The notes: generated by a model from the sequence alone, not told the origin. DNA of 64,000 nucleotides from an uncultured Bacteroidia bacterium (GCA_902783365.1 CACZQL010000019.1:1261-65260); one strand, 5' to 3'; counted from the first letter of the stretch, positions 2 through 44,855 are shown. Translations and numbers: made by a program.

Positions 2-1120
2 TCCCTCCTCAAGGTGATGCTCACCAACAGCTGCATGTACGACTGCGCCTACTGCGTCAACCGCCGCTCCAACGACATCCCAAGGGCAACCCTCTCCGTC
101 ACCGAACTGGTGGACATCACTATGGAGTTCTACCGCCGCAACTACATCGAAGGCCTCTTCCTCTCAAGCGGCGTGGTGCGTAACCCCGACTACACCATGG
201 AACGCCTCGTGGCCATCGTCCGGGAGCTCCGCACCCGCCAACGCTTCAACGGCTACATCCATCTGAAAAGCATCCCCGGCGCCTCCCCCGAACTGCTCGC
301 CGAGGCAGGACGCTACGCCGACCGAATGAGCGTCAACATCGAAATCCCCAAAGAGGAGTCGCTGAAACTGCTTGCCCCCGAGAAAGACCACCAAAGCGTG
401 TTCCAACCGATGAAACGCATCCAACAGGGAGTGATAGAGAATAGGGAAGACCGCCGCCACCTCCGCCACGCGCCACGTTTTGTGCCTGCGGGACAATCCA
501 CCCAGATGATCGTGGGAGCGACCAAGGAAACGGACCGCGACATCCTCACCATGTCGTCGATGCTCTACGCCCAGCCCACCATGCGACGGGTGTATTATTC
601 GGGCTACATCAGCGTGAACACCTACGACCCGCGCCTGCCGGTGCTCAAACAGCCGCCCCTGGTGCGCGAGAACCGCCTCTACCAGGCCGACTGGCTGCTG
701 CGTTTCTATCATTTCAAGGTGGAGGAGATCGTGGACGACCAGACACCCGACCTCGACCTGGAGATCGACCCGAAGCTGGCTTGGGCGTTGCGCCACCCCG
801 AGGTCTTTCCCGTGGATGTGAACAAGGCAGACTACGAGATGCTGCTGCGGGTGCCGGGCCTCGGCGTGAAGTCGGCGACGCTCATCGTGAACGCGCGCCG
901 TTACGGAAACCTCTCGTCGTTCGACCTGAAGAAGATGGGCGTGGTGATGAAAAAAGCCAAGTATTTCATCACCTGCCACGAACTCGCCTCGCCGCTTCCT
1001 GGGGCCATGCCCGGCATCAACGAGTTGCGGCCTGAGCGTCTGCGCGCCCTGCTGGTCTCTCCCCAGGAACGCAAGATGGCCGAGAAGGAACAACAACTTT
1101 CCATAGACTTCGGCGTATGA
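2..1120 (+). CDS. Radical SAM protein, putative DNA modification/repair family (N-terminus lies upstream of the window)
   Basis: The frame is open from base 2 (SLLKVMLTNSCMYDCAYCVNR...). It has a CxxxCxxC radical-SAM cluster motif and a C-terminal HhH-like LLRVPGLGVKSA. Its stop overlaps the next start (ATGA at 1117-1120). The family call (TIGR03916-like) is from memory and was not searched. Confidence 0.8.
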   Translation, partial: SLLKVMLTNSCMYDCAYCVNRRSNDIPRATLSVTELVDITMEFYRRNYIEGLFLSSGVVRNPDYTMERLVAIVRELRTRQRFNGYIHLKSIPGASPELLAEAGRYADRMSVNIEIPKEESLKLLAPEKDHQSVFQPMKRIQQGVIENREDRRHLRHAPRFVPAGQSTQMIVGATKETDRDILTMSSMLYAQPTMRRVYYSGYISVNTYDPRLPVLKQPPLVRENRLYQADWLLRFYHFKVEEIVDDQTPDLDLEIDPKLAWALRHPEVFPVDVNKADYEMLLRVPGLGVKSATLIVNARRYGNLSSFDLKKMGVVMKKAKYFITCHELASPLPGAMPGINELRPERLRALLVSPQERKMAEKEQQLSIDFGV

Positions 1121-1899
1121 CGTTTTACACTTTCGACGGGACTTTGGACGGCCTGTTGACGGCTGTTTTCGACGCCTTCGAGCGGCATGAGGCGCCCGAG
1201 AAGCTTCTGGCCGCGGGCGATATGCTGCCTCTGTTCTGCGAACAGGTCCACGAGGTGGTTACCGACGAGGCCAAGGCCAAACGGGTATGGGCGGGACTGG
1301 AGAAAAGGCTGTCGCGGGAGGCCTTGCGGATGATCTCGGTGAGCTGGCTCTCGGAGCTGCCGGAGCTGGCCAACCCCTTGTTCGGCTATGTGTGCAAGAC
1401 CTTCCGTCAACCTGCTGGGGTGAGCATCGAGCGTAACTTTGCCGACCCCGACGTGCTGGCCGTGACCAACATCGCCCGGAAGGTGCTGCACGAGCAGCTG
1501 CGCATGAAGCAGTTCATCCGCTTCCAGAAAGCCAATGACGGCACCTACCTCGCAGTCGTGGCCCCCGACCACAATGTGGTGCCGCTTGTCATCACGCATT
1601 TCGCTGACCGTTTCAACGACCAGCCTTGGCTCATCTACGACGCCAAGCGGCATTATGGCTATTATCACGAGGGTGGGGGAGCCCCCGTCAGGGTCACTTT
1701 CGAGGACGAGTCCGCCGTGCCTTTCAACCTCGCCGACGGCAAGCTCAGCGACGAGGCGCTGAGCGCTGACGACCATCTCATGCAGGAGCTGTGGCGCACC
1801 TACTTCAAGGCCATCTGCATCCGTGAGCGCATGAATCCCCGCAAACAACTCAAGGACATGCCCCGGAGGTACTGGAAGTTCATGACCGAGAAGCAATGA
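1117..1899 (+). CDS. DUF4130/TIGR03915-type probable DNA metabolism protein (usual partner of the radical SAM gene)
   Basis: 260-aa ORF translationally coupled to the radical SAM gene. The pairing and size match the conserved two-gene cassette as I remember it. I recognised no catalytic motif. Confidence 0.65.
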   Translation: MTFYTFDGTLDGLLTAVFDAFERHEAPEKLLAAGDMLPLFCEQVHEVVTDEAKAKRVWAGLEKRLSREALRMISVSWLSELPELANPLFGYVCKTFRQPAGVSIERNFADPDVLAVTNIARKVLHEQLRMKQFIRFQKANDGTYLAVVAPDHNVVPLVITHFADRFNDQPWLIYDAKRHYGYYHEGGGAPVRVTFEDESAVPFNLADGKLSDEALSADDHLMQELWRTYFKAICIRERMNPRKQLKDMPRRYWKFMTEKQ

Positions 1900-1938
1900 A
1901 TATCTAGATTTATACAAGTCAGATTCCCCTAAAATTCA

Positions 1939-1946
1939 TACCTTTG
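1939..1946 (+). promoter_or_regulatory. Bacteroidota -7 promoter box TACCTTTG (TAnnTTTG)
   Basis: Exact TAnnTTTG match 16 nt upstream of the ATG at 1962. It lies inside the TTG-extended ORF, which argues for the ATG start. Confidence 0.5.
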
Positions 1947-1961
1947 CCAAAAATTTCCGTT

Positions 1962-2735
1962 ATGAATCCCTTCAACGTTACCATCCTGGGTTGCGGCAGT
2001 GCCTTGCCCACCGAAAGGCATTATTGCTCCTCGCAAGTTGTCAACCACCACGGGAACCTCTTCATGGTCGATTGCGGCGAGGGCGCGCACTACCAGTTCC
2101 AACGCAACCACCTTCATGAGTCGAAACTCAACCATATCTTTATCAGTCATCTTCATGCAGACCATTGTCTGGGCCTGACGGGTGTCCTTGTCGCCTACGC
2201 CCTCAAACGGCGCACCGCCGACCTTCATGTGTATGCCCCCGCTGAGTTCGAGGGAATGCTCTACCGTCAGTTCGAGTTCTATGCCTCCAACGCCACCTAC
2301 CGGCTGGTGTTCCATCCCATCGAAGGCTCACAAACGACCACCCTCTATGAGGATGGTCATCTTTCCGTGCAGGCGTTTCCCCTGGAACATAAGGTGCCTT
2401 GCTACGGTTTCCTCTTCCAGGCGGATGGCCATGGCTACGCCTATTGCTCCGACACCAAGCGCATCGCCCCGCCCACCGAGGCGCTCTATGGGGTGGACCT
2501 GCTCTATCATGAGGCTACCTACGCCGACTCGGAAGCGAATCTTGCCGCAACCATGTACCATGCCACGGCGCGTCATGCGGCGCAATTCGCCCGCGAGATT
2601 CAAGCCAAAAAACTGATTATCGGTCATCCTTCCTCCCGCTACAGGGATGAGTCCATTTTGTTGAAAGAGGCTCATGAGGTGTTCCCTAACACGATTTTAG
2701 CCGAGGAAAACCTGTGTGTTGCAGTTGGCGGTTAG
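1962..2735 (+). CDS. rnz: MBL-fold metallo-hydrolase, RNase Z-like (short form, 257 aa)
   Basis: N-terminal ILGCGSALPT, FMVDCGEGA and the HxHxDH motif ISHLHADHCLGL resemble Bacteroidales RNase Z. I chose the ATG at 1962 over the TTG at 1944. The last codons and the stop lie inside a CAGTTGG heptamer array. Confidence 0.7.
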   Translation: MNPFNVTILGCGSALPTERHYCSSQVVNHHGNLFMVDCGEGAHYQFQRNHLHESKLNHIFISHLHADHCLGLTGVLVAYALKRRTADLHVYAPAEFEGMLYRQFEFYASNATYRLVFHPIEGSQTTTLYEDGHLSVQAFPLEHKVPCYGFLFQADGHGYAYCSDTKRIAPPTEALYGVDLLYHEATYADSEANLAATMYHATARHAAQFAREIQAKKLIIGHPSSRYRDESILLKEAHEVFPNTILAEENLCVAVGG

Positions 2736-3249: not shown

Positions 3250-4839
3250 ATGCAAACAAGAAAATACCCCATCGGCATCCAGACCTTTGAGAGAATAAGG
3301 AAAGAAAAATACCTTTATATTGACAAAACGGACTTGGTTTGGAAGTTGACCAAGGAAAGCCCGTATGTTTTTCTCAGCCGTCCGCGCCGGTTCGGAAAAA
3401 GCCTTCTTTCCACCACCTTGGATTCCTATTTCCAAGGTCGCAAAGAGCTATTTGAGGGATTGAAAATCATGGAATTGGAGAAGGAATGGGAAGATTATCC
3501 TGTCATCCATTTGGATTTGAGCGACGCAAAAAACCAACAGTCAGCCGAAGAACTGCGGCAAGCGCTTTTGCTCCTGCTGAAGCCCCTTGCGGCAAAATTC
3601 GGACGCGATGAAGACGAGAAGCTGCCAGGAGCATTGTTGAAAGGCCTCATCCGACGCGCCTACGAGATGACGGGCAAACAAGTGGCCATCGTTATCGACG
3701 AGTACGACGCTCCTCTTTTGGACGTGCTTCACGACGTGCGGCTGAAGGAATTCCGTGTCGTGATGCAGGAGTTCTACCAGCCACTGAAAGCCAGCGAGGC
3801 GATGGTCAAGTTCTGCTTCATCACGGGCATCACCAAGTTCAGCCAGCTGAGCATCTTTTCGACCATCAACAACCTGATGAACGTCTCGATGGACCCGCGT
3901 TATGCGGCTATCTGCGGCATCACCGAGGAGGAACTCACGAAGGACATGGCCCCTGACATCGCCCTGTTGGCGGAGGCCTACGAATGCACGTCCGAAGAGA
4001 TGCACGCCAAACTGAAACAACAGTATGATGGCTATCGGTTTTCAAAGCAGTCCCCCGACATCTACAATCCGTTCAGCCTGCTGAAATGCTTCAAGCATCA
4101 AGATGTTGCCAACTATTGGTTCGAGAGCGGGACACCGACGTTCCTCATCCGTCAGATGCAGCATTTCAGAACGGATATCATGGCAATGGAACGCATCGAG
4201 GCTTCGGCCTCCTCTTTCGACCGCCCCACCGAGGCTATGGAAAACGCCCTGCCATTGCTTTACCAGAGTGGGTACATCACTATTAAGGAATATGACCGCG
4301 AAACCGAATCTTACATTTTGTCAATTCCCAACAAGGAAGTACGGGTTGGACTGATCGATGGCTTGATTCCCGCTTATACCGGCTTGGGCGGCAGTTTGGT
4401 CAGGGATGGCTTTGCCTTGAAGTTTTACCGCGCTCTAAGGAAGGAGGATATGGAGACTGCGTTGAACGAGCTGAAGGCATTCTTGGCGGGGGTTCCCTAC
4501 GTGGAGGGTTTCAAAAAGAAGCTGGAGGACGCCTCCTTCTCGGAAGGCTTCTATGAATACACCTTCTGGTTGATATTCAACATGCTGAACGTGTATGCAC
4601 AGACGCAGGTGAAGTGCCATGGAGGCCGCATCGACTTCGTGGTTCAGATGCCCGAAACGACCTACGTGTTCGAGCTGAAGGTGAACGGCACGGCCCAGGA
4701 GGCCATGGACCAAATCAACAGCAAAGGCTACGCGTTGCCTTACCAGACCGAGGGTCGCAAGGTCGTCAAGGTCGGCGTCCAGTTCGACCGCGACACGATG
4801 ACCGTCGGGGAATACCTGTGCGTTGCAGTTGGCAGTTGA
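3250..4839 (+). CDS. AAA-ATPase-like protein with a C-terminal PD-(D/E)XK nuclease-type domain (multi-copy Bacteroidales family)
   Basis: The N-terminus YPIGIQTFERIRKEKYLYIDKT...FLSRPRRFGKSL is the signature of the 'predicted AAA-ATPase' family as I remember it. The C-terminal GRIDFVVQ...YVFELK is PD-(D/E)XK-like. The last six codons lie in a heptamer array. Confidence 0.8.
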   Translation: MQTRKYPIGIQTFERIRKEKYLYIDKTDLVWKLTKESPYVFLSRPRRFGKSLLSTTLDSYFQGRKELFEGLKIMELEKEWEDYPVIHLDLSDAKNQQSAEELRQALLLLLKPLAAKFGRDEDEKLPGALLKGLIRRAYEMTGKQVAIVIDEYDAPLLDVLHDVRLKEFRVVMQEFYQPLKASEAMVKFCFITGITKFSQLSIFSTINNLMNVSMDPRYAAICGITEEELTKDMAPDIALLAEAYECTSEEMHAKLKQQYDGYRFSKQSPDIYNPFSLLKCFKHQDVANYWFESGTPTFLIRQMQHFRTDIMAMERIEASASSFDRPTEAMENALPLLYQSGYITIKEYDRETESYILSIPNKEVRVGLIDGLIPAYTGLGGSLVRDGFALKFYRALRKEDMETALNELKAFLAGVPYVEGFKKKLEDASFSEGFYEYTFWLIFNMLNVYAQTQVKCHGGRIDFVVQMPETTYVFELKVNGTAQEAMDQINSKGYALPYQTEGRKVVKVGVQFDRDTMTVGEYLCVAVGS

Positions 4840-5108: not shown

Positions 5109-7691
5109 TTAGTGAGAGATTTTGGTAGTGAAGCTGCCGCTCTCCGAAACGATGTTGAGGAGATACATCCCTGAGGGGAGGGCCTCCAAAGGCAATACCG
5201 TTACGGAGGTGGTGACTTCGGTGTCATAGACCACCTGGCCCAAGAGGTTAGTCAAGGTCACACGCCGGAGACCGTCGCACTCCACCGTGACCTGGCTCAT
5301 GGCGGGATTGGGATACACCTTCACCTCGGCATCCGTTGCCTCTGACAGGGCCATGTAATCCTTGTCCAGACACTCCGACCAGGCAATGTGGGCACCGCCA
5401 TCGGCACTCACACCGTATTTGTATTGGCCGATGGGCAAGGCCTCCCAGCCGAGATCGACGTAGGTGGTCTCGGTGACGTCCGATGCCACCAGCACCAGGT
5501 TGGAACCGTCGCAGTCGGCGCGATAGAGGTTGTAGGGATTGCCCACCGTGATGTCGTCAATGTAGAAGGCGTTCTCATACTCACCCTCGGCGAGCTGGTT
5601 GGCGTATTTCCATTCAAGGATGTGATTGCCGGCACTTAACGGGAAAGAGTAACGGGTCCAAGGAACGAGATCCTTGATGGTCTCACCCATCTGGATGTTG
5701 TCGATGAAGAAGCCGCCGCCGTTCAAGGGGAAGCAGCTGATCTTGGCGTAATAGCTGACCATGCAGGTGGCGGCCACGTTCACGGCCAGCGAGATCTTGC
5801 TTGTGGTGAACATCCCGGTGTTGGTCGATTTGGCGCAATACGTGCCGTTGTGGGGCTCTGAGGTGCTGATGACCCAGGGATAGGTCTGGTCGATCAGCCA
5901 CATGTTTTGGTAGAAGTCGCCCGACTCGAAGCCGTCGGCCAGTCCGGCGGGCATGTTCCACGACAGGACGACACGGGCGTTGTTGATGACCTGAGTCTCC
6001 ACCACCACAGGCTTCTCCACCGTCACGTAGTTGGAGGGGAGGGAAGTGAGGCCGTTGTCGAGGGTGGCGGTGACGTAATAGGTGTAGCTGCCGCCGTAGT
6101 TGAGATGGTCGTAATAGCTGGTCTCGGTGAGGTTGTTGGCGATGCGGATGTCGTCGCGATAGACCTGATAGCTGACGCCTTCGGGGGCGGCTTCCCAGTG
6201 CAGGGCCACCTCATAGACGTCGTAGCTGGCGGTGAGTTGGGTGGGGCCGTGGTGGAACAGGGCGTCCATGGCAGCCAAGGCGTCGATGCGTCCGGTGCCC
6301 ACACGGTTGTTCTTCGAGCTGTTGCCGATCTTGACGGCGGTCAGCTCCACGATGGAGTCCAGCTGGGCGGGTGTCAGGCTGGGGTCGGCTTCAAGAAGCA
6401 GGGCCATGACGCCGGCGGCGCAGGGGGTGGCCATCGAGGTGCCGTCGTATTCGATGTAGCCGTTGTTGGTGGCGTAGTTGAGCGAGGTGATGTTGGAGCC
6501 GGGGGCCGACACGTCGGGGCGGATCAGTCCGGGCTGGGTGGCGTCGCCGTTCTCGTAGGGATAGTCGTTGTAGTCGCCGATATAGTCGCCGTAGGCCCAG
6601 GTCACGGGACCCACGGAGGAGAAGTCGGAATGCTCGTCGTTGCGGTCGGTGGCGCCGATGCTGATGACGGCGGAGAGACCTCCGGTGATGAGACGGCGCT
6701 GGTCGGGATGGAGCCAGGGCGGAGGGCAGTTGCCGGGAGCCCCGATATTGAAGGGGATGGGCTGGGCGTATTGGGTCTGGCCTTCGTTGCTGGCGGCCAC
6801 CGCGGCGGCCACGCCGGCGTCGAGGCAGGTGACGAACACGTCGCGGTAGATGGCGTAGCCTCCGATGCCGGCAATGCTGAGCGACATGCTGAGGAGGTCG
6901 GCGCCGTGCTCCAAGGCGAACTCGATGCCCGTGATGGCGTCGGTGTCGGAACCCTCTCCGGCATCGTTGATGACCTTGATGGCCATGACTTTGGCTCCGG
7001 GGGCGATGCCCGTCACCGTGCCGGCAGCGCCTTGTCCGGCCAGGATGCCGGCGGTATGGGTGCCGTGACCATGGTCGTCCATGGGGTCATTGTCGTTGTT
7101 CACAATGTCGATGCCATGATGTGGGAACTCGGAACCTCCGTCCCACATGCTGTTGGCGATGTCGATATGGTTGTAGTTGACACCGGAGTCGATATGGCCG
7201 ACCACGATGCCGTCGCCGGTATAGCCGTTGCCGTTGTAGCTCCACACCTCGGGGGCGTGTACCTGGGGCACTTGCCAGGCCATGTCCTTGGCGGTGGTGG
7301 GACGGGGTTTCTCGTTGGCGGGGGCCATGCACTTCTTCGCGTCGGGCATCACGGCAGCCACGTCCTTCCGGGCCTGGAGCATGGCGATGGCCTCAGCACT
7401 GGCGTCGCAACTGAAACCGTTGAAACTCCAGAAAGTCCTTATCGACTCCACGTCGAGACCGTCGAGGGATTGCAGCACAGCCTGCTGCGAGGCTTGGCAG
7501 AAGGCTTTCCGCTCGTCGATGACAAACTGTCGTCGTTGTGACTTATTCATAAACATTGTTTTTGAAGCAATATTTGTGTTGTCATATTGCTGGCTCATCA
7601 CTACGATAACGGGGGAGAGCGCTTTTTCTTGGCTGAAGGCCGTGCCGAGGCAGAGGCTCATCAGCAGGGTAAGGAGGGTATATCTTCTCAT
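5109..7691 (-). CDS. S8 family serine peptidase (subtilase) with I9-like propeptide, jelly-roll accessory domain and T9SS C-terminal sorting domain
   Basis: Signal peptide MRRYTLLTLLMSLCLGTAFSQ. Catalytic motifs GHIDSGV (Asp), HGTHTAG (His) and GTSMATP (Ser). The C-terminus KVYPNPA...GMYLLNIVSESG...KISH is a typical T9SS CTD (about 5112-5325). Confidence 0.9.
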   Translation of the reverse strand: MRRYTLLTLLMSLCLGTAFSQEKALSPVIVVMSQQYDNTNIASKTMFMNKSQRRQFVIDERKAFCQASQQAVLQSLDGLDVESIRTFWSFNGFSCDASAEAIAMLQARKDVAAVMPDAKKCMAPANEKPRPTTAKDMAWQVPQVHAPEVWSYNGNGYTGDGIVVGHIDSGVNYNHIDIANSMWDGGSEFPHHGIDIVNNDNDPMDDHGHGTHTAGILAGQGAAGTVTGIAPGAKVMAIKVINDAGEGSDTDAITGIEFALEHGADLLSMSLSIAGIGGYAIYRDVFVTCLDAGVAAAVAASNEGQTQYAQPIPFNIGAPGNCPPPWLHPDQRRLITGGLSAVISIGATDRNDEHSDFSSVGPVTWAYGDYIGDYNDYPYENGDATQPGLIRPDVSAPGSNITSLNYATNNGYIEYDGTSMATPCAAGVMALLLEADPSLTPAQLDSIVELTAVKIGNSSKNNRVGTGRIDALAAMDALFHHGPTQLTASYDVYEVALHWEAAPEGVSYQVYRDDIRIANNLTETSYYDHLNYGGSYTYYVTATLDNGLTSLPSNYVTVEKPVVVETQVINNARVVLSWNMPAGLADGFESGDFYQNMWLIDQTYPWVISTSEPHNGTYCAKSTNTGMFTTSKISLAVNVAATCMVSYYAKISCFPLNGGGFFIDNIQMGETIKDLVPWTRYSFPLSAGNHILEWKYANQLAEGEYENAFYIDDITVGNPYNLYRADCDGSNLVLVASDVTETTYVDLGWEALPIGQYKYGVSADGGAHIAWSECLDKDYMALSEATDAEVKVYPNPAMSQVTVECDGLRRVTLTNLLGQVVYDTEVTTSVTVLPLEALPSGMYLLNIVSESGSFTTKISH

Positions 7692-7711
7692 TTCAATAGG
7701 GTTTGGAGCTG

Positions 7712-7719
7712 CAAAGTTA
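7712..7719 (-). promoter_or_regulatory. Bacteroidota -7 promoter box TAACTTTG (minus strand)
   Basis: The reverse complement of CAAAGTTA, 21 nt upstream of the S8 ATG at 7691. Confidence 0.5.
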
Positions 7720-7799
7720 AGAATTATTGGATTTCAATCCATACTATAAAACACCAATTTTTCCTTATATTTCGGATTATATGGAGTGATTACTATCAT

Positions 7800-8945
7800 T
7801 TATATTGACAATGATAGTTGTCCCAATTGAGATTCTGTTTGAATATAATACAGATTGGTTCCTCCCTTTTTCTCAGTTTTGATACCATTTATTTTTTTTA
7901 GCATTGCAGTTAGTTTTTGACTGCTGATATTTGAAAGATGTAATAATTCTAAGATTTCTTTTGAGGTATATTTCCCTTTGCTTAACAGATTTCTAATCTT
8001 GTCCTCTACAGTTTCATAGGGTTTGGGATTTTCTGCTACTATAGGACATGGTTCTTCAACTATTTCATATTTGATGATGTCATGAATTGGTTGGCCTTCC
8101 ATGTCAACAGGAAGTGCCCCCATGTTAATTAGTGTTAAGTTGGCGCATTTTTCTCCATTCGATGGTTTTCTAACGAATATTTTTCTTTCTTTTTTCAATC
8201 CATCACAGACACCACTCCATGTTCCCCCTTTGTCATCGGATTGTGCTACAAATATTTCAGAAGCGAGCCCATAGATGATAGGATTTCTAGCCATAGCTAA
8301 TTCAACGCTCCAAGGTGATTTAGGATGGAATGTGCTTAAAACCAGCACATCGCCATCTATGATTTGTTTGTAGTACTTTTTCATTCCGCTTGCAAAAGTG
8401 GTAATGCCTTGAGGTAATACAATGATGCTTTGTCCATGGTATTTCAGAGCTGAATCAAGGGCTTGTTTATCGACGCCTTTGGCGAAGCCACTGACAACGA
8501 TTTTTTTTTCGGATGATGCTTTTTTTGCCACATTATCCGTAAATACTAATGATGTTTCGTTTGCATTGCGTGAACCAACAATGGCGATGGCTTCTTCATG
8601 AAGGATTTGCTTGTTGCCTTTCGTGTAAAGTATCAACGGCGAGTTGTATTTTAGATTGGTTTTTAAGGTCGAAGAATATACTTCAGATGTTATCGGAACA
8701 ATGTCGTAACCTTGATTCAATAGCCCTTCAACCATAAACGCATAATTGGCCAGTTCCAACTTTGTTTTTTTCAGCAATTCGAGCTCTTGAGATTTTAAAT
8801 CCAAGTCCAGAAAGTTTTCCGACTCAAAGAAATCAGCGACAGTTTTTCCTTGATTGAAACATTGGACAACAATATCATTTTTTCTTGATGTCCAAATACT
8901 AGGTGTATGTGCTAGTGCGGCCCAATAGGTTAATTCTTGATTCAT
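7800..8945 (-). CDS. DprA/Smf-like (SLOG Rossmann) protein with C-terminal winged-helix
   Basis: IAIVGSRNANETSLVFTDNVAKK...IVVSGFAKGVDKQALDSAL...IIVLPQGI matches the DprA Rossmann core. The start overlaps the upstream stop (ATGA at 8942-8945). The gene is low in GC. Confidence 0.8.
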   Translation of the reverse strand: MNQELTYWAALAHTPSIWTSRKNDIVVQCFNQGKTVADFFESENFLDLDLKSQELELLKKTKLELANYAFMVEGLLNQGYDIVPITSEVYSSTLKTNLKYNSPLILYTKGNKQILHEEAIAIVGSRNANETSLVFTDNVAKKASSEKKIVVSGFAKGVDKQALDSALKYHGQSIIVLPQGITTFASGMKKYYKQIIDGDVLVLSTFHPKSPWSVELAMARNPIIYGLASEIFVAQSDDKGGTWSGVCDGLKKERKIFVRKPSNGEKCANLTLINMGALPVDMEGQPIHDIIKYEIVEEPCPIVAENPKPYETVEDKIRNLLSKGKYTSKEILELLHLSNISSQKLTAMLKKINGIKTEKKGGTNLYYIQTESQLGQLSLSI

Positions 8946-11164
8946 AATTGATCTCCTCCAACGGTTTTGGCAATGGCGATCGGAACTATAATGTCGGCTC
9001 CCATTGATGTTAATAATTTCCCTATTTCTTTCATTGTTGCACCACTATCAAAGATATCGTCAATCAAAATAATTCTTTTTCCTTCGATTTCTAAAGGGTT
9101 GGAATAAGAAAAAGCATCTTTTATATTATCTACCTTCAAAAGGCGGTTTTGAAATACTTTTTGTTCTTTTGTTTGACGAACTTTGATGAGCTTGTGAGAA
9201 ATTGGTGTTTTTAATACGGATGAAAACTTGATGGCGAAATTTTTGACTAAATCCCCTGAATGTGTTGGCGGAACATAGAGAACTAGATCGAATTTGGTGT
9301 TTCCAAAAGTCTTGCAGAAAGCTTTTAAAGTAAGCCTGAGTAAAAAATCGGGGAAATCACCTCCGTTTTCATATTTGGATCGATGCAAAGCATTCCCGAC
9401 ATTGGAAACACCGTAATACGAAGCAGCGACACCATTGATAATATGCGATTTTTTTTCAAGGTGTCTTTTTAATAATGCTTCAAGAAATATCTTTTCATCT
9501 GCAGAAAAGCATTCCCAATTCACTGAGTGATTGAATGATCTGAATAATTGATCGTTTTTGATAATATCAATTCTATTGATAACAGGGACACTCACCGCCC
9601 ATTTAATTCCACTTGATTTTTGGGTGCTTGATGTAGTTTCCGATACATCTAGAACAGGGAAATAAGCTTCTCTAAATTCTGACAATTTGCTACACCAAAA
9701 CTCGTTTGTCTCAATGGTTAGTTTAGACAAATTTGTGTTGTCGCAGTTAGAATAGGTTGTTTTGCTGTCGTCATCCAAAAACTCACATAAGTATTGCATT
9801 CTTGGTTTTGTCGTATTGACATAGCCAATCATGGAATCCAAGTCTTTCAATTTGATCATCCTTAATTCTTCAAATACACTGGTATCTAACGCTTTTGCCC
9901 CGAATTGGTATTCCAATAGTTTTCTTTTTCCATCTTCAACTTCTCTCACAATACCTTGGTCAATTAAATCGGCTTTGATTATACGAATCTGATTCTCTTT
10001 GAGATTGGTGGCTTTAGTCAGTCCTGCCATGGTGAGTGGCTCGTTTTTTAAGGCATTAATGGCTTTGTCATAATTAGCTATTGATGGTCTTGCGCCATCA
10101 ATAAAAGCCTTTGGTAGTTTATAATCGGTCTCGATCCCATTTTCATCTTTGGATTCGTTATAAAACAGTATGATGTTGGTAGGTTTTCCATCTCTGCCGG
10201 CACGGCCGATTTCTTGAAAGTAATGAATTGGAGAGGCAGGGATTTGAGTGTGTATAATAAAACGAATATCAGGTTTGTCAATGCCCATTCCCAAAGCATT
10301 TGTGGAAACAACGCATTTATATTTGTTTTGCATCAAGCCGATTTCAATTTCTTTTCTTGTTTCGGCATCATGTCCAGCGTGATAGTTTACGGCGTTAACG
10401 TTGTTTTGTACTAGCCATGTCGCATAAATCTCAGTGTCCACACGGGTACCTGTGTAAATAAGACCAGTCCCGTCAAGTTTCTTTATGTTTTGGGCAAGCC
10501 AAATCAGTTTTGCATCGTCGGATTTCACTTTTAAGACATACAATCGGAAGTTGTCGCGTTTCAGATTACCTCTAATAGTGGTTAGTTTTCCACCGATTTG
10601 TTGTTCTACATCTGATTGAACTCTTTTTGTGGCAGTAGCTGTTGTCGCCAAAATTGGTAAACTTTGAGGCAATAGTTTTACCAAATTGATAATTCGTCTG
10701 AATGCAGGTCGGAAATCGTGTCCCCAGACAGAAATGGTATGGGCTTCATCAATGACAACCATCGAAAGGTTCATTATTTGAGTTGCTTCAATCCATTCTT
10801 GATTTTCTTGTCGTTCGGGAGCAATATATAGGATTTTTATTTTCCCTTGTAATGCTTCCTGAATGGTGTCTGTGTTTTCTTCGGGCGACTGTTCGGAATT
10901 AATATATCTAGCTGGTATTCCTTTGTTGTTTAATGCTCTCACTTGATCACGCATCAAGGCGATTAAAGGGGAAAAAATAACCGTAATGCCCTGAAACAAT
11001 GTCGCTGGATATTGGTAACATAATGACTTTCCAAATCCAGTTCTTTGAATCATTAAAATGCGTTCACCATTGAGAATGCGGCTAATTGCTTCCCATTGTT
11101 CGTCGTAGAAATGATCTATTCCGAATATCTGTTTTAATCTGATTTCGTGTTCTTGTCGATTCAT
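8942..11164 (-). CDS. RecQ-family SF2 helicase fused to a C-terminal ComF/GntX-type phosphoribosyltransferase domain
   Basis: Helicase motifs: QRTGFGKSLCYQ (motif I), VVIDEAHTISVWGHDFRP (DEAH) and FQEIGRAGRDG (motif VI). The last roughly 130 aa (about 8945-9365), LVLYVPPTHSG...GKRIILIDDIFDSGATMKEIG, form a ComF-type PRPP-binding loop. The gene is low in GC. Confidence 0.8.
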   Translation of the reverse strand: MNRQEHEIRLKQIFGIDHFYDEQWEAISRILNGERILMIQRTGFGKSLCYQYPATLFQGITVIFSPLIALMRDQVRALNNKGIPARYINSEQSPEENTDTIQEALQGKIKILYIAPERQENQEWIEATQIMNLSMVVIDEAHTISVWGHDFRPAFRRIINLVKLLPQSLPILATTATATKRVQSDVEQQIGGKLTTIRGNLKRDNFRLYVLKVKSDDAKLIWLAQNIKKLDGTGLIYTGTRVDTEIYATWLVQNNVNAVNYHAGHDAETRKEIEIGLMQNKYKCVVSTNALGMGIDKPDIRFIIHTQIPASPIHYFQEIGRAGRDGKPTNIILFYNESKDENGIETDYKLPKAFIDGARPSIANYDKAINALKNEPLTMAGLTKATNLKENQIRIIKADLIDQGIVREVEDGKRKLLEYQFGAKALDTSVFEELRMIKLKDLDSMIGYVNTTKPRMQYLCEFLDDDSKTTYSNCDNTNLSKLTIETNEFWCSKLSEFREAYFPVLDVSETTSSTQKSSGIKWAVSVPVINRIDIIKNDQLFRSFNHSVNWECFSADEKIFLEALLKRHLEKKSHIINGVAASYYGVSNVGNALHRSKYENGGDFPDFLLRLTLKAFCKTFGNTKFDLVLYVPPTHSGDLVKNFAIKFSSVLKTPISHKLIKVRQTKEQKVFQNRLLKVDNIKDAFSYSNPLEIEGKRIILIDDIFDSGATMKEIGKLLTSMGADIIVPIAIAKTVGGDQL

Positions 11165-11190
11165 ATCATTGGTTTAAAGTTGGTGCTAGT

Positions 11191-12906
11191 TTACCGTTCC
11201 CTGCGCTCGATGACCTCCTTCAGGCGGTAGCGGTCGCCGGTGGCGGGACCGATGGCGTCGATGAACTGCTGGTCGTAACCGGGGGTGTCGTGACCCCAGC
11301 GGAGGAATCGACCATCCTCGCCCACACGGCGCACAATCTGGTCGTTGTACCTGACGATGAGGCGCTTGGCCAGCTGGTCCCAACGGGTCATCATGCGGTT
11401 GGCGTAGTCGATGCTCTTGCGGTTCAGGAAGCTCTGGCGCTCGGCGGGCATCAGGTCCTTGATGGCCGCAAGCACGGTGTCCTGGTCGGCAAAGTAATAG
11501 TCCTCCAACTCGTTCTGGGCCTTGCGGAGGTCGCCAATCATCATGGAGTAGCGGGGATATACCATGTTGGCCACCCAGTTGTTCATCCAGAAGGCGGACT
11601 GCTCGCTGAACTCGGTGCGGGGGTTGTTTTCCGGACGGAAGGGGTCGGGCACCTGGGTGATGCAGCAGTAGAGCGGCACGTAGGCCACCATGTTGGCGTC
11701 GTCGCAGTTGAACCAGGTGACGCCGCCCACGTCGTCGGGCAGCCAGGAACGCATCTGGCAGGTCATGGTGAAGCCCGACTGCTGGCAGGCGATGGGACGC
11801 TCGCGGAAGTAGTCGAGGCTGTCGCTGTCCTTGAAATGCATGGGCAGCGGGCGGATGGGCATGCCCCAGGGGCCTGCGGTCATGTCGGAGGTCATGTCCA
11901 AGGCGGTGCCTTCGAAATGGTCGCGCATGTCGCGTTGCAAGTCGCGCAAAGAGAGGGGCTTGTCGGGCTTGATCCACAAAGGCAGATGGTCGTACTCGCT
12001 GAAGTCGCCGTTGAGGTAGGGGAGGTATTTGTCCATCTCCTCGGGGTCGGTGTGGTGGCGGAAGAAGCTCCACACGCGGGCGTCGGCATAGCGCACGTTC
12101 TCGAAGTCGATGGGGCAGTAGGCGTCGCGGAACGAGAAGTCCTCGTCCTTCCCGCTGAAGAACCCCTTCTCACGCGCCAACGAAATCACATCCCAAGCAT
12201 AGACGCATTCCACCTGTGGCTGGTGTAACTTCTTGAAATTCTTGCTGCTGATGCTCTTTCCACTTTCCGCTTTCCGTTTTCCACTTTCCAAGGGGAACTG
12301 TCGGATGCGGCTCAGGTTGGCGTGGGCGCAGATGCAGTCGTCGGGGACGCGCAAGGCCACCCACACGGCGCCTTTCCGGCCAGGACCCTTGCCGATGATC
12401 TCCATGATCCAAGCCTCGTTGGGGTCGCACACGGTGAGGGTCTCGCCACTGCTGTTGTAACCATATTCCTCCACCAACTCGGCCATGCATTGGATGGCAT
12501 CGCGGGCATTGGCGCATCGTTGCAGGGCCAGGCGCATCAGCGAGAAATAGTCGAGCAACCCCTCGTTGTTCACCAGCTCCAAACGTCCGTCGAAGGTGGT
12601 CTCCACAATGGTCACCTGTTTCTCGTTCATCAGGCCCACTACATTATAGGTGTAAGGCACTTGTTTTACATACTGTCCTTCGTGCGAAGGACCCCAGCCG
12701 TGGATGGCGATAAGCTCGCCGTCGGCATGGCGGCCCGAAGGACTGTAAGAGAGGGAGCCGCTGAATCCAAAACCGTCACAATTGTAGGTACACATCACAC
12801 TGCCGTCGGTCGAAGCCTTTTTGCCGACAATGAGGTTGGTGCAGGCCATGGCGGTTTGGAGGCCAATGAGCATGAATGCGAAAGAAAGGAATACAGTTTT
12901 TTTCAT
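11191..12906 (-). CDS. C69 family dipeptidase (secreted)
   Basis: The signal peptide MKKTVFLSFAFMLIGLQTAMA is followed by the nucleophile Cys in CTNLIVGKKASTDGS, typical of C69. I set the start at the ATG at 12906. The longer ORF reaching 13158 would overlap the Nudix gene and encodes an Arg/Pro-rich extension. Confidence 0.85.
   Translation of the reverse strand: MKKTVFLSFAFMLIGLQTAMACTNLIVGKKASTDGSVMCTYNCDGFGFSGSLSYSPSGRHADGELIAIHGWGPSHEGQYVKQVPYTYNVVGLMNEKQVTIVETTFDGRLELVNNEGLLDYFSLMRLALQRCANARDAIQCMAELVEEYGYNSSGETLTVCDPNEAWIMEIIGKGPGRKGAVWVALRVPDDCICAHANLSRIRQFPLESGKRKAESGKSISSKNFKKLHQPQVECVYAWDVISLAREKGFFSGKDEDFSFRDAYCPIDFENVRYADARVWSFFRHHTDPEEMDKYLPYLNGDFSEYDHLPLWIKPDKPLSLRDLQRDMRDHFEGTALDMTSDMTAGPWGMPIRPLPMHFKDSDSLDYFRERPIACQQSGFTMTCQMRSWLPDDVGGVTWFNCDDANMVAYVPLYCCITQVPDPFRPENNPRTEFSEQSAFWMNNWVANMVYPRYSMMIGDLRKAQNELEDYYFADQDTVLAAIKDLMPAERQSFLNRKSIDYANRMMTRWDQLAKRLIVRYNDQIVRRVGEDGRFLRWGHDTPGYDQQFIDAIGPATGDRYRLKEVIERRER
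12256..12290 (+). repeat. Five-unit heptamer array CTTTCCA/CTTTCCG/TTTTCCA inside the C69 coding sequence
   Basis: Read directly. On the coding (minus) strand it encodes ...LESGKRKAESGKS.... Confidence 0.9.
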
Positions 12907-12977: not shown

Positions 12978-13511
12978 TCAGACGAGGTCGGTGAGGCGCA
13001 GGCTGAGGTTGAGCCGTTCCTCCGTGGTAAGGTCGTCGAAGAACCTCTCGGGCAGCATGACGGTACGTCCGTCTTCCATGATGCGTTTGAAAGCCTTGGC
13101 GAGGATGTCGTCGTGGTCGAAGGCGAGTTTCTCGGGGAGGGCTTTCACAGGGAACCATTGGGCCTTGGCGGCGTCGTCAAGGCCCTTCACGTTGGCGATG
13201 CGGGTGAAGGCGTAGTAGCCGATGGAGATGACCCAACCCCGGGGATCGCGGTGGGGTTTTGTGAAGGCTCCGAACTGGATGGCGTGGGGCAGACGGAGGC
13301 CGGTTTCTTCCTCCAGCTCGCGCAGCGCGCCTGTCTCGCCTTCCTCGTCAGGCTCCAAAAAGCCACCGGGGATGGCCCAGTAACCATGGTAGGTGTCGCC
13401 GCCCCGCTCGATGAGCAGGACATACAATTCGCTCCCGTCAAACCCCAGCACCACACAGTCGGCAGTGACCGACGGGCGCGGGTATTTGTAGGAGTAGCGT
13501 TGCTCTTCCAT
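12978..13511 (-). CDS. NUDIX hydrolase
   Basis: Nudix box GGFLEPDEEGETGALRELEEETGL (GX5EX7REUXEEXGU). 177 aa. The start lies 3 nt after the upstream stop. Confidence 0.85.
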   Translation of the reverse strand: MEEQRYSYKYPRPSVTADCVVLGFDGSELYVLLIERGGDTYHGYWAIPGGFLEPDEEGETGALRELEEETGLRLPHAIQFGAFTKPHRDPRGWVISIGYYAFTRIANVKGLDDAAKAQWFPVKALPEKLAFDHDDILAKAFKRIMEDGRTVMLPERFFDDLTTEERLNLSLRLTDLV

Positions 13512-13514
13512 GCC

Positions 13515-13895
13515 TTATCCTTCGATTTGGTCGTAAAACTCTTTTCTGGCGCCAACCATGATGTTCAGCAGTCGGGGGATGAAGTCCTCCAACACGGGGG
13601 TCGTGTCCATCAGCATCTCGGTAGCGATCCAAACGCTGTCGCGGACCACCATCACCTTCGCCACCTTATATACTTTGTTCACTTCGTTGACGGCCTCCAA
13701 CACGGCAATGCGGTTGTCCTCGGTCACGTCGTAGATGTTGGGCAGACCCATGCGGAAATAACGCTCGTCGTCGTCATTGTTGAAGAAGTAGAAGGTCAGC
13801 ATGTTGAACTTGAATTTCACGTCATTGTCCTCGTCGAAGGCGGGCATTAATCCCTGCTCTTTGAGGTAATTCATTACCATTTCTGTAGTTTTCAT
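13515..13895 (-). CDS. YbjN-like (T3SS-chaperone-fold) small protein
   Basis: 126 aa and acidic. The pattern of alternating hydrophobic strands (FKFNMLTFYFFNNDDDERYFRMGL) resembles the YbjN family. The assignment is from memory only. Confidence 0.5.
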   Translation of the reverse strand: MKTTEMVMNYLKEQGLMPAFDEDNDVKFKFNMLTFYFFNNDDDERYFRMGLPNIYDVTEDNRIAVLEAVNEVNKVYKVAKVMVVRDSVWIATEMLMDTTPVLEDFIPRLLNIMVGARKEFYDQIEG

Positions 13896-13898
13896 GTC

Positions 13899-13926
13899 AA
13901 TTTAGAATTTAGAATTTATAATTTAT
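13899..13926 (+). repeat. Heptamer array AATTTAG AATTTAG AATTTAT AATTTAT
   Basis: Read directly. It fills the 27-nt gap between the kinase-AAA and YbjN-like genes and covers the kinase-AAA stop codon (13923-13925). Confidence 0.9.
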
Positions 13927-15734
13927 AGTTCTTTTTTAAAGCCGATTCGGGGCAGGAGGTTCGCTCTGCTGATGCCTTCCATTTTCTGCTGAAGGTCGTC
14001 GTACATCTGGAGGGACTCTTTGCTGACGGAGGGCCGGGTTTGGCTGATGGACTTCTCGAGGAGTTCCTGGGTGATTTCGGCGCGGGTGAAGGCGGCGGTC
14101 ATGGCGGCGTCGTTCACGATGAAAGCGATGTCGGAGGCGATGTAGCCGTCGGTGAGGTCGGAGAGGCGGTCGAAGTCGATGCTGTCCTCCTGGTAGGGAC
14201 GTCCTTTGATGTGGATCTTGAACATCTCGCGTCGGGCGTCATGGTCGGGGAGGGGGACGTAGATGATTTTGTCGAGACGGCCTGTCCTCAACACGGCGGG
14301 GTCGATCATGTCGGGACGGTTGGTGGTGCCCACGACGAAGATGCCTCGCTTGGAGCAGTTGTTCAGCTGAGTGAGGAACTCGTTGACCTCGCCGGAGACG
14401 TGGGAGGTGCCGGGCAGCGAGCGGTTGGGCACGAAGGCGTCGAACTCGTCGAAGCAGAGCACGGTGGGGGCGTCCCTTTCGGCTTGCTTGAACAGCTCAC
14501 CGATCTTCTCCTGCGACCCGTGGACATAGATGCTGGCCAGGTCGGAGGCTTTCACGAGGATGAAGTTGAACCCGGTTTGCTCGGCGAACTTCTCGGCAAA
14601 GAACGACTTGCCGCAGCCGGGAGGCCCATAGAGGAGCATCCCGTTAGGTGGCACCAGCCGGTATTGTTCCGAGAGTTCCTTGTTTTGAATCACGAAGATG
14701 ACTTTCTGTTGCAGCAGGTCTTTCAGTTCCTGCATGCCCGCGATGTCGTCGAACCCATGTCCGTTGCCTCTGCGTGAGGTGACTTTCAGCTCGTTTTCGC
14801 TGGAGGTCTGCTGGCTTTGGCTTCCCCGGGCTTCGTCGGCGTCTTTTTGGGCCCGCTCGCTTCGCTCGCCGGGCCGGTTCGCACCACTGTTGTCGCCCAG
14901 GTCGCCCAACACCTGGCTCACGTTCTGGTATTGGTCGCCACGGCTGTTGAGCAAGCCCCGCTCAAGCACGTATTTCACCTTGTCGGAGACGGGCAGCGAC
15001 AGCACGTCAACCGGGTGCTCCTTGCGGTAGCGTTTCATCTTGACCATCTTGGAGCCGAAGTTCTCGCCGGAGGAGAAGTCGATGTTCCAGGGGGATTTGC
15101 CGGTAATCAGGGTGTATAGCACCGCGATGGCCGAAAACACGTCGCAACGCTCGTCAAAGACTCCGGCGGCAGTGGCATTGGCGCAGTATCTCGGGTCGAG
15201 GTCCATGGTGTCGAAAGGCACCTTGCCGGAACAGGACTCGGAGGAATGCCCCATGTCGATGATCTCGGGCGTGCCTTCGGTGCTCTCGCTGAGCATGATG
15301 TTGCTCGGCGTGATGTCGTTGTGGCAGATGCCCATGCCGTGAAGGTATTGAAGCCCTTCGAGGATGCCCTTGAACACCTTGAGGGCTTCCTCCTCCATGA
15401 AGGAAGCGCGCTGGATCTTGTCGGCCAGCACCTCGCCGGTGAAGTAGTTGGTCACCACATACTGGCACTCGCCCATGGGCAGGTCGATGGTGCCATGCCC
15501 GATGTAAGACACCACGTTGGGGTGCTGCATCCGGCGCAACAGCTTGATTTCCATCACCTCATGCAGGTTCTGGTCGATGATCTTGGCAGGGGTCTTCTTC
15601 AAGATGTACAACTTCAGGAAATAGGGGTTGTCGTTCTCGTTGACCACCTTGTAGGTCTCGGTGTATTCGTTCTCCTTGATGAGACGCTGTATCCGATAGT
15701 TTCCAATGACGAATCCTTCTTGTAATGTGCTCAT
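13923..15734 (-). CDS. Ser/Thr protein kinase domain fused to a classical-clade AAA+ ATPase domain
   Basis: The N-terminal roughly 280 aa have the catalytic loop ICHNDITPSNIML (HxDxxxxN), IIDMGHS (a DFG-like DMG) and a degenerate Gly loop. A low-complexity linker follows. The C-terminal domain has Walker A LLYGPPGCGKSF, Walker B VLCFDEFDAF and VVGTTNRPDMIDPAVLRTGRLD, the CDC48/FtsH-type second region of homology. Confidence 0.8.
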   Translation of the reverse strand: MSTLQEGFVIGNYRIQRLIKENEYTETYKVVNENDNPYFLKLYILKKTPAKIIDQNLHEVMEIKLLRRMQHPNVVSYIGHGTIDLPMGECQYVVTNYFTGEVLADKIQRASFMEEEALKVFKGILEGLQYLHGMGICHNDITPSNIMLSESTEGTPEIIDMGHSSESCSGKVPFDTMDLDPRYCANATAAGVFDERCDVFSAIAVLYTLITGKSPWNIDFSSGENFGSKMVKMKRYRKEHPVDVLSLPVSDKVKYVLERGLLNSRGDQYQNVSQVLGDLGDNSGANRPGERSERAQKDADEARGSQSQQTSSENELKVTSRRGNGHGFDDIAGMQELKDLLQQKVIFVIQNKELSEQYRLVPPNGMLLYGPPGCGKSFFAEKFAEQTGFNFILVKASDLASIYVHGSQEKIGELFKQAERDAPTVLCFDEFDAFVPNRSLPGTSHVSGEVNEFLTQLNNCSKRGIFVVGTTNRPDMIDPAVLRTGRLDKIIYVPLPDHDARREMFKIHIKGRPYQEDSIDFDRLSDLTDGYIASDIAFIVNDAAMTAAFTRAEITQELLEKSISQTRPSVSKESLQMYDDLQQKMEGISRANLLPRIGFKKEL

Positions 15735-29049: not shown

Positions 29050-29119
29050 AAATACGGTTTTTTAATATTTTTTAATGAAAAACACGCACAAAAATGGGTG
29101 TTTTTTGTTGAATTATGTA

Positions 29120-29127
29120 TATTTTTG
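29120..29127 (+). promoter_or_regulatory. Bacteroidota -7 promoter box TATTTTTG
   Basis: TAnnTTTG match 52 nt upstream of the ATG at 29179 of the giant gene. Confidence 0.45.
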
Positions 29128-29178
29128 CGCCCGCAAAAAAAGTGCCTATAGTATAGATTTTTTTTAAACTATTTGTAT

Positions 29179-43813: not shown

Positions 43814-44363
43814 ACAGATTGAATAATTCGGGAAACTTCCCTTTGACTCCCCGGTAATAGTCCCAGATCTCGGCGAGGTCTTTCTCGTAATCACCGGTGG
43901 GGTAGAAGACGCGCTCAATACCGCAATACTTCTTTTGGTAGTCGATGAAACCGAGGATGATGGGCACTTTGGCGCCTTCGGCGATGACGTAAAACCCTTT
44001 TTTCCATCGGTTCACTTTCTTTCGGGTGCCTTCGGGGCAGATGATGAGGTGGGTGTTCTTGTTTTGGCTGAACATTTCCACCATCTGTTCCACGAGGTGG
44101 TTCTGGTGTCCGCGGTTGACGGGGATGCCGCCCATTTTTTTGAGGATCCAGCCCAGCACGGGTTTGAAGAACTCCTTTTTGATCATCACCTTGAAGGGGA
44201 TGTCGTAGTACCAATAGAAGGCCACGCCGACGAAGAAGTCCTCGATGGCGGTATGGGGGGCGACGATGCAGACGGCGTTGCCCAAATCCTTAGGGGCTTC
44301 GTTGACGGTTTTCCAACCGCCAAGCTTCAGCCCAAGTTTTGCGATGGAGTGCTTGAGAGACAT
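43812..44363 (-). CDS. Lysophospholipid (1-acyl-sn-glycerol-3-phosphate) acyltransferase family protein
   Basis: 183 aa. HX4D acyltransferase motif in VAPHTAIEDFF, and the downstream EGTRK motif (ICPEGTRKK). Confidence 0.75.
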   Translation of the reverse strand: MSLKHSIAKLGLKLGGWKTVNEAPKDLGNAVCIVAPHTAIEDFFVGVAFYWYYDIPFKVMIKKEFFKPVLGWILKKMGGIPVNRGHQNHLVEQMVEMFSQNKNTHLIICPEGTRKKVNRWKKGFYVIAEGAKVPIILGFIDYQKKYCGIERVFYPTGDYEKDLAEIWDYYRGVKGKFPELFNL

Positions 44364-44376
44364 AACTTTATTTAAT

Positions 44377-44404
44377 GCGGAATTCGGAATGCGGAATGCG
44401 GAAT
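44377..44404 (+). repeat. Heptamer array GCGGAAT TCGGAAT GCGGAAT GCGGAAT (left arm of an inverted pair)
   Basis: Read directly. It ends 3 nt before the stop of the four-helix-bundle gene. It is the reverse complement of 44827-44854 with 2 mismatches in 28 nt. Confidence 0.95.
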
Positions 44405-44406
44405 AA

Positions 44407-44763
44407 TTAGTTGGTTTGCTGTTTCTTTGTGATGGATACTAAGATGCGGATCAGCTCGTTACAATGGACGTTTAGTTTATTAAACAAATCATCAGGAAGA
44501 TACGCTGTGGCGTGGAGGATGTCCAACCAATAGTTCGTTTCGCTTGCTTCTTTTAATGCGATATTCATTTTTGCAAAGAAATCTGGTTTTGTTTGTCCTC
44601 TAACTGCTTCAGCTATATTAGCTCCGATACTTGTTCCACACCTTAACAGCTGTTTTGACATCACAAATTCATGTTTTTTTTCTGTTATCCACTTGTAAGT
44701 CAATACTGTCTTTATTGCGAAATCTCTACTCTTAGTTTTGATTATATTATCATCATTTTTCAT
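44407..44763 (-). CDS. Four-helix-bundle protein (23S rRNA intervening-sequence protein / Avd-like family)
   Basis: 118 aa. RCGTSIGANIAEA...FFAKMNIALKEASETNYWLDIL is the family signature as I remember it. GC is visibly lower than in the neighbours. Confidence 0.8.
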   Translation of the reverse strand: MKNDDNIIKTKSRDFAIKTVLTYKWITEKKHEFVMSKQLLRCGTSIGANIAEAVRGQTKPDFFAKMNIALKEASETNYWLDILHATAYLPDDLFNKLNVHCNELIRILVSITKKQQTN

Positions 44764-44826
44764 TTTGTGTTTGTTTGGTTTGGTTTAGTTTATTTTATTT
44801 TATTTTAGTTCTTATCAAAACTCTTT

Positions 44827-44854
44827 ATTCCGCATTCCGAATTCCGAATTCCGA
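44827..44854 (+). repeat. Heptamer array ATTCCGC ATTCCGA ATTCCGA ATTCCGA (right arm of the inverted pair)
   Basis: Read directly. It abuts the pepO stop codon (44856-44858). Confidence 0.95.
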
Positions 44855-44855
44855 A

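Follow-up and report, generated by a model that had tools for sequence, protein, structure and literature searches.

A PsyrTA/RqlHI-family cassette, probably a horizontally acquired defence-type toxin-antitoxin system, in an AT-rich islet of an uncultured rumen Bacteroidia bacterium

RqlH is a RecQ-like helicase whose C-terminus bears a phosphoribosyltransferase (PRTase) domain described as 'unique among known helicases', and RqlI, encoded by the gene immediately downstream and often overlapping it, is its DprA-homologous partner (Russell & Mulvey 2015, PMC4670107). By itself RqlH causes SOS induction and filamentation. This toxicity needs the PRTase and its phosphoribosyl pyrophosphate (PRPP) pocket (D663A, DIVD to EVME), with the helicase (K49A, D148A) modulating it, while RqlI, which co-precipitates with RqlH, neutralises that protein. 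The same paper reports orthologues in 240 genera, credits the first characterisation of the helicase to M. smegmatis, discusses a parallel with competence proteins and proposes a cooperative function on DNA; on double deletion of the pair no fitness benefit was detected, and no role in transformation was found (PMC4670107). Here we describe a locus of this kind in a 64,000-nucleotide stretch of DNA from an uncultured Bacteroidia bacterium (GCA_902783365.1, CACZQL010000019.1:1261-65260; the whole stretch is called the window below), in which an AT-rich islet at 7692-11190 holds two overlapping genes, named psyrT and psyrA for the reasons that follow.

The RqlHI pair has been equated with the PsyrTA of Sberro 2013 (Millman 2022, bioRxiv 10.1101/2022.05.11.491447), which, as later papers relate it, was described as a toxin-antitoxin (TA) system. 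PsyrTA is counted among the two-gene TA systems involved in phage resistance, and a psyrA deletion was not transformable (bioRxiv 10.1101/2022.05.11.491447); the system has further been predicted for one strain of Bacteroides. A DprA+PRTase system without the helicase, found in P2/P4 hotspots and now called ShosTA, was reported with rqlHI cited as a relative (Rousset 2022, PMC9122126). In ShosTA, toxicity depends on PRPP binding, ShosT perturbs purine metabolism, ShosA binds single-stranded DNA (ssDNA) and RecA, and the system is triggered when T7 Gp0.7 shuts off the protein synthesis of the host, in combination with the instability of ShosA (PMC11961720, PMC12961424).

Both proteins of the islet are covered end to end by curated profiles of a known defence system. 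The 740-aa protein matches the PADLOC profile PsyrT (PDLC03928) with an E-value of 2.8e-252 and 837 bits, aa 2-738 aligning with profile positions 2-688 of 689, and the 381-aa protein matches PADLOC PsyrA at 3.9e-78 and 261 bits (aa 32-367 with profile positions 43-394 of 398). Judged by sequence, the islet is a member of the PsyrTA/RqlHI family, with a RecQ-like helicase::PRTase toxin and a DprA-like antitoxin. A first-pass annotation, made by reading the window alone, had taken the architecture to be undescribed and the pair to be a candidate new system. This has to be withdrawn: the architecture is already described, being the one that defines RqlH and RqlI, and the PADLOC profiles span the whole of both proteins. 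More than 8000 proteins match PsyrT at E<=1e-10 (all scored candidates), with the combination DEAD + Helicase_C + Pribosyltran in nearly all of the 120 matches listed. The islet is a typical cassette of the PsyrTA/RqlHI kind, apparently intact and within reach of the standard tools for defence annotation, and we hold it to be probable, with good confidence, that it is a horizontally acquired PsyrTA (= RqlHI) cassette of the toxin-antitoxin or abortive-infection type of defence. Its layout is as follows.

8942..11164, minus strand: psyrT, an rqlH-like putative toxin gene of 740 aa (ORF call, PADLOC PsyrT, Pfam, full-length E. coli alignment)
7800..8945, minus strand: psyrA, an rqlI-like putative antitoxin gene of 381 aa with a DprA-like product (PADLOC PsyrA, DNA_processg_A, Foldseek)
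8942..8945, minus strand: ATGA in which the stop of psyrT overlaps the start of psyrA, a sign of translational coupling (direct sequence reading)
11165..11190, minus strand: gap of 26 nt from the stop of the C69 dipeptidase gene (11191-11193) to the psyrT ATG (sequence)
7692..7799, minus strand: AT-rich spacer of 108 nt from the psyrA stop to the ATG of the S8 peptidase gene (sequence, composition)

These are the only two long open reading frames (ORFs) in the islet, and both lie on the minus strand. That there are exactly two genes, joined by an ATGA overlap, had been stated at the outset and agrees with the ORF calls and with direct reading. The pair is organised as an operon: the same 4-nt stop/start overlap is present in the homologous loci L081-L093, and at all homologous loci examined the helicase-PRTase gene comes before an adjacent or overlapping DprA-like gene.

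The composition of the islet is foreign to its surroundings. Its G+C fraction is 0.370 (0.369 for psyrA, 0.374 for psyrT), against 0.604 for the S8 peptidase gene and 0.595 for the C69 dipeptidase gene, and at third codon positions (GC3) the islet has 0.33-0.34 where the flanks have 0.82. In 400-nt windows there is a sharp trough, with G+C of 0.33-0.42 at about 7600-11200 and 0.58-0.66 either side, the shift being abrupt at each end; the islet is the lowest-G+C 3.4-kb stretch of the entire window (minimum 0.373, median 0.55). The first-pass annotation was thus right about an AT-rich islet with abrupt ends, and somewhat low in putting its individual lines at 28-35% G+C, since the 60-nt lines range from 0.27 to 0.47 with a median of 0.38. 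Two far milder dips, at about 29001-30000 and 44001-45000, reach 0.445-0.449 in 1-kb windows (window mean 0.55).

The islet agrees with the described PsyrTA/RqlHI systems in its two-protein make-up, in its domain order, in the order of toxin then antitoxin gene with overlapping stop and start, and in a mobile, patchy genomic distribution. The Walker A Lys, the DEAH box and the PRPP-loop Asp pair are all conserved in the PsyrT of the window, where K46, D139 and D702/D703 are the positions that were mutated in RqlH (K49A, D148A and D663A). It differs in its host, an uncultured rumen Bacteroidales, in the length of PsyrA (381 aa, against 463 aa for the E. coli partner), and in two features of its subclade, namely an insert of about 60 aa that separates the RecQ C-terminal region from the PRTase, and a zinc-binding motif that is degenerate. 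The regions of PsyrT are listed here.

10151..11137, minus strand: RecQ-type helicase core, aa 10-338 (RecQ 1oyw, recQ_fam, conserved motifs)
9638..10150, minus strand: helical RecQ C-terminal-like region, aa 339-509 (sub-threshold RecQ_Zn_bind, alignment)
9449..9637, minus strand: insert particular to the subclade, about 60 aa long (aa ~510-572) and predicted to form four strands and a helix (alignment, AlphaFold)
8945..9385, minus strand: putative PRTase toxin domain of the ComF/type I PRTase-like kind, aa ~594-740 (Pribosyltran, PRPP loop)

Pfam identifies DEAD (1e-25), Helicase_C (3e-19) and Pribosyltran (1.4e-7) in PsyrT, and the NCBIfam family recQ_fam (TIGR00614) scores 321 bits, passing its cut-off of 219.8, which is a subfamily-level assignment to RecQ. 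The helicase core carries the Walker A motif GFGKS (K46), the DEAH box (D139-H142) and QEIGRAGRDG, and both K46 and the DEAH box (139-142) are invariant in homologue alignments. Its nearest match in the PDB is E. coli RecQ (1oyw, E 1e-65, aa 10-337); PsyrT itself has no solved structure. Over its full length PsyrT is 32-33% identical to two E. coli RecQ-family helicases that belong to DprA pairs. The peptides quoted in the first-pass annotation can all be found in the translations of the islet, these being VVIDEAHTISVWGHDFRP, GKRIILIDDIFDSGATMKE, TGFGKSLCYQ and QEIGRAGRDG as well as IAIVGSRNA and VVSGFAKGVDKQA.

In the helical region that follows, RecQ_Zn_bind scores 17.6-19.4 bits, below the Pfam threshold. 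The RecQ zinc tetracysteine is degenerate at 9725-9799 (minus strand, aa ~456-480), just C460 and C474 being kept in the Bacteroidales clade. In the same region the chromosomal E. coli homologue at locus L095 has no Cys, and the plasmid-borne one at locus L094 retains a C-x2-C-x2-C cluster.

The insert at aa ~510-572 is present in the 738-743-aa PsyrT proteins of Bacteroidales and missing from the 678-aa variants P0058 and P0116 in the alignment. It has no Pfam match. In the AlphaFold model it is confidently predicted, with a predicted local distance difference test score (pLDDT) of 73-89, the rest of the C-terminal half being poorly modelled. The insert might act as a distinct surface for sensing or for regulation, with a phage protein or PsyrA as conceivable partners. 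That the insert-bearing Bacteroidales subclade, with most of its zinc Cys lost, forms a functionally distinct PsyrTA variant seems to us rather improbable; if true, its trigger or regulation would differ from those of the E. coli and Bacillus systems.

For the PRTase domain, Pribosyltran scores 31.4 bits against a gathering score of 26.3. Over aa 594-734 the NCBIfam families comF (1.8e-10) and GntX (7.7e-9) each stay under their cut-offs. The proposal of a RecQ helicase with a C-terminal PRTase is upheld. In the alignment the PRPP loop LIDDIFDSGAT stands opposite the E. coli sequence VDDIVDSGWT, with D702, D703, S707 and T710 invariant; the catalytic motifs are intact. The PADLOC ShosT profile matches PsyrT at 7.8e-6, over aa 679-735 only, and the isolated PRTase domain has weak PDB matches to APRT (0.009) and ShosT (0.02). 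The AlphaFold model of PsyrT has a mean pLDDT of 59, with values below 50 in the PRTase domain, and because of this poor model the domain was assigned from sequence profiles.

In PsyrA two domains can be delimited.

8106..8714, minus strand: DprA/SLOG Rossmann domain, aa 78-280 (Pfam, structure matches, AlphaFold/Foldseek)
7842..8009, minus strand: C-terminal winged-helix-like domain, aa 313-368 (AlphaFold)

The DprA core that had been noticed in this protein corresponds to a Pfam match to DNA_processg_A at 2.6e-39, and an alignment with the E. coli partner gives 36% identity across the Rossmann domain. The AlphaFold model (pLDDT 78) consists of an N-terminal helical domain, the Rossmann domain, a disordered linker and a unit of three helices and two strands (H313-321, H328-334, H342-351, E355-360, E363-368; pLDDT 82-87). 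Pfam families of winged helices match the C-terminus only under threshold. The predicted topology of aa 313-368, and the alignment of the whole PsyrA chain with the three-domain DprA 3maj, argue that the C-terminal winged helix had been correctly recognised. A Foldseek search with the model ranked S. pneumoniae DprA first (3uqz, E 5e-15) and ShosA next (8zva, 2.6e-14), followed by a three-domain R. palustris DprA and then by SLOG proteins (LOG, MCP), in line with the SLOG relationship that had been supposed.

ShosTA is the system that the first-pass annotation had mentioned as a DprA-like plus PRTase pair (Rousset 2022, Millman 2022), and it is indeed a relative: ShosA is the PADLOC runner-up for the 381-aa protein, at 1.2e-32. 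The two systems share a PRTase toxin and a DprA-like antitoxin, and for ShosTA there are the structures 8zva, 8zvb and 9vzo. They differ in that ShosT has no helicase domain, whereas PsyrT of the window carries a 340-aa RecQ core. ShosA is reported to neutralise ShosT without direct binding, whereas RqlI binds RqlH. As an assignment for the islet ShosTA was rejected, the toxin preferring PsyrT (2.8e-252) over ShosT (7.8e-6) and its partner preferring PsyrA (3.9e-78) over ShosA (1.2e-32).

Four further families were rejected because all their scores lie under the curated cut-offs. Canonical RecQ reaches 354 bits against a TIGR01389 cut-off of 640, the match stopping at aa 338 and there being no Pfam HRDC match. 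The PADLOC profile of DpdF matches PsyrT at 2.6e-110 over aa 4-387, yet NF041063 gives 159.7 bits against a cut-off of 550, and the neighbours are peptidase genes, with no other dpd gene nearby. Both families share the RecQ-family superfamily 2 helicase core with PsyrT, but neither has a C-terminal PRTase. Canonical DprA scores 103 bits against 191 (TIGR00732), and canonical ComF scores 41 bits against an equivalog cut-off of 234, with GntX also under its cut-off. PsyrA nevertheless has the Rossmann/SLOG fold, N-terminal helical domain and C-terminal winged-helix domain of DprA/Smf, and PsyrT is predicted to have the ComF-like type I PRTase fold of ComF(C)/GntX. In contrast to the competence proteins, the PRTase here is fused to a helicase and the pair is a mobile cassette, not a core gene pair.

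The genes that flank the islet are those of an uncultured rumen Bacteroidales, the best C69 matches being 85-86% identical and coming from metagenome-assembled genomes of cattle, yak, sheep and deer. The very same psyrT protein is encoded on 5-6 rumen metagenome contigs that are independent of each other, with the order C69-psyrT-psyrA-S8 wherever the flanks are visible. Comparing the S8-C69 junction among relatives, as the first-pass annotation had proposed, gave one informative case: of 80 related genome loci, a single one (L027, on the same contig as L099) retains the order NUDIX-C69-S8, and there the junction lacks the islet. In this more distant species the S8 start lies 105 nt past the C69 stop, the DNA between them being too diverged for exact mapping of the insertion boundary. 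No psyrTA pair stands beside C69 or S8 in the 80 genome loci or in 80 metagenomic S8 loci. A same-species empty site was not found, the exact C69 protein being present solely on islet-bearing contigs. Around the islet there are no significant flanking direct or inverted repeats, no tRNA genes and no Rfam families, and no integrase marks the insertion.

Close homologues in other rumen Bacteroidales are found in varied settings. P0006, P0031 and P0054 are 77-79% identical to PsyrT, and each has an overlapping 384-aa DprA-like partner, so the expected co-occurrence of the two genes holds for all of these close homologues. The contexts of the three are unrelated, AbiEii and GmrSD genes being included in two of them, and the pairs are again AT-richer than their surroundings (G+C 0.36-0.41 against 0.43-0.55). 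Homology from cassette to cassette reaches no further than the stop codon of psyrA at one end and some tens of nt upstream of the psyrT start at the other. Because the homologues occupy varied contexts, some of them defence-rich, the conclusion is that the pair acts as a small mobile cassette among rumen Bacteroidales, one that often lands among defence genes. The earlier suggestion of a horizontally acquired defence-type module accordingly gains from the foreign composition, from the absence of the islet at the relative's junction and from these variable contexts.

It is worth describing the two annotated E. coli pairs, which were reached by a plasmid protein search and by a DNA search of E. 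coli genomes; the latter gave one 61-nt match, which led to an annotated RecQ-family + DprA pair. On an IncF plasmid (NZ_OX030731.1, L094 1694-11773) the PsyrTA-like pair is nested in a type I restriction-modification (R-M) operon, in the order hsdM, hsdS, helicase, dprA-like, hsdR with spacings of 4-15 nt. On a chromosome (NZ_AP021946.1, L095 699-8040) the pair lies in an apparent integrative and conjugative element, with trbL upstream, immediately behind an ABC-three-component system and a gene for the antitoxin HigA.

A scan for the Bacteroidetes -7 consensus TAnnTTTG found none upstream of psyrT. A -7 box, TAACTTTG, is present at 7712-7719 in the psyrA-S8 spacer, 21 nt before the S8 start, and probably serves S8. 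The related cassettes L087 and L089 carry a -7 box, TATCTTTG, about 25 nt before the psyrT ATG (~7975-7990 in those loci). Since the copy in the window has no such box, the comparison suggests that its cassette arrived promoter-less or lost its promoter. Given that the gap between the C69 stop and psyrT is just 26 nt and that the -7 box is lacking, psyrTA is probably transcribed by read-through from the C69 gene or else from a non-consensus promoter. A sigma-70 promoter scan gave 15 sites against 9.9 expected, the sigma-70 model being uninformative for a Bacteroidetes host.

By analogy with the characterised homologues, PsyrT would be a RecQ-like 3'-5' DNA helicase with a C-terminal PRTase as its toxic effector, and PsyrA a translationally coupled, DprA-like ssDNA-binding protein that would keep PsyrT harmless. 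PsyrA would bind PsyrT, and PsyrA and the helicase domain would jointly restrain the PRTase. If PsyrA were lost or titrated, a PRPP-dependent PRTase activity would be expected to disturb nucleotide or DNA metabolism, and the ensuing replication stress, filamentation and growth arrest would stop phage propagation. Following the example of ShosTA, PsyrA might be lost when a phage shuts off host protein synthesis and the antitoxin is unstable, or it might be titrated by phage ssDNA or recombination intermediates.

Several observations weigh against reading the islet as a defence cassette of this kind. Its immediate neighbours are peptidase genes and not a defence island, its proteins are just 32-36% identical to their E. 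coli homologues, psyrT lacks a consensus -7 box, and the PRTase fold assignment, for which the model is of low confidence, is supported by sequence profiles. Moreover, one systematic study of a native E. coli PsyrTA could detect no protection against the phages it used, and defence is therefore either not universal or phage-dependent. Because of this study we retain, as unlikely yet worth weighing, the explanation that the islet is a selfish addiction cassette, in which cells that lose the antitoxin die and this host gains no anti-phage benefit. Such a cassette could well sit between two housekeeping-type peptidase genes, and RqlHI does act as a TA pair whose double deletion had no detected fitness benefit; on the other hand, a homologous PsyrTA was protective against phages in a heterologous test, close homologues adjoin AbiEii and GmrSD, and those of E. 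coli are nested within an R-M operon. Addiction and defence are not mutually exclusive.

It is very improbable that the islet is an accessory module for DNA uptake, recombination or repair, processing ssDNA for RecA in a manner that mirrors ComFA, ComFC and DprA. Russell & Mulvey raise this parallel and propose cooperation on DNA, the fold of PsyrA is nearest to that of S. pneumoniae DprA, ShosA binds RecA and ssDNA, and there are sub-threshold matches to DprA (1.2e-29) as well as to ComF and GntX. All the corresponding scores, however, are far under the equivalog cut-offs (dprA 103/191, comF 41/234, recQ 354/640 bits), and the helicase is of the RecQ type and not of the ComFA type; nor would one expect from such a module the foreign composition, the patchy distribution and the absence from the syntenic site of a relative, and no transformation role was found for RqlHI. 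Slighter still is the chance that the islet is a decayed or silent remnant, unexpressed in this genome. The missing -7 box, which related cassettes have, and the closeness of the upstream gene, just 26 nt away, would fit a remnant. Both ORFs, though, span their family profiles in full and keep every catalytic motif, the sequence is found again on 5-6 independent contigs from rumen metagenomes, and the tight same-strand spacing to C69 permits read-through transcription.

As a probable PsyrTA defence cassette, the islet is relevant mainly for annotation, providing an example from rumen Bacteroidales of a defence/TA family that is known to PADLOC and DefenseFinder. It also illustrates cleanly how a cassette of two genes, apparently promoter-less, can stand between two host genes, and since this Bacteroidales variant is compact, very AT-rich and equipped with an extra small domain, it could be a useful specimen for structural or biochemical work.

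Further genes of the window deserve mention. Beyond S8, at 14-2735 (plus strand) and 3250-4839 (plus strand), there are a radical-SAM + DUF4130 pair, a metallo-beta-lactamase (MBL)-fold protein with Anti-Pycsar_Apyc1 among its precomputed Pfam matches, and an AAA-ATPase_like/PDDEXK_9 protein; these are annotations of an identical contig (L081). At 13923-15734 (minus strand) a 603-aa protein is encoded that fuses a Ser/Thr protein kinase to an AAA+ ATPase, with domain-level PADLOC matches to mad6 (3e-31), IetA (2e-29) and PD-T4-6 (6e-29). It is followed by a small TY-Chap1-like ORF (13515-13895, minus strand) and a NUDIX hydrolase gene (12978-13511, minus strand). All three have a host-like GC3 of 0.76-0.83, and together they could form a module native to the host, for signalling or of a defence-like kind.

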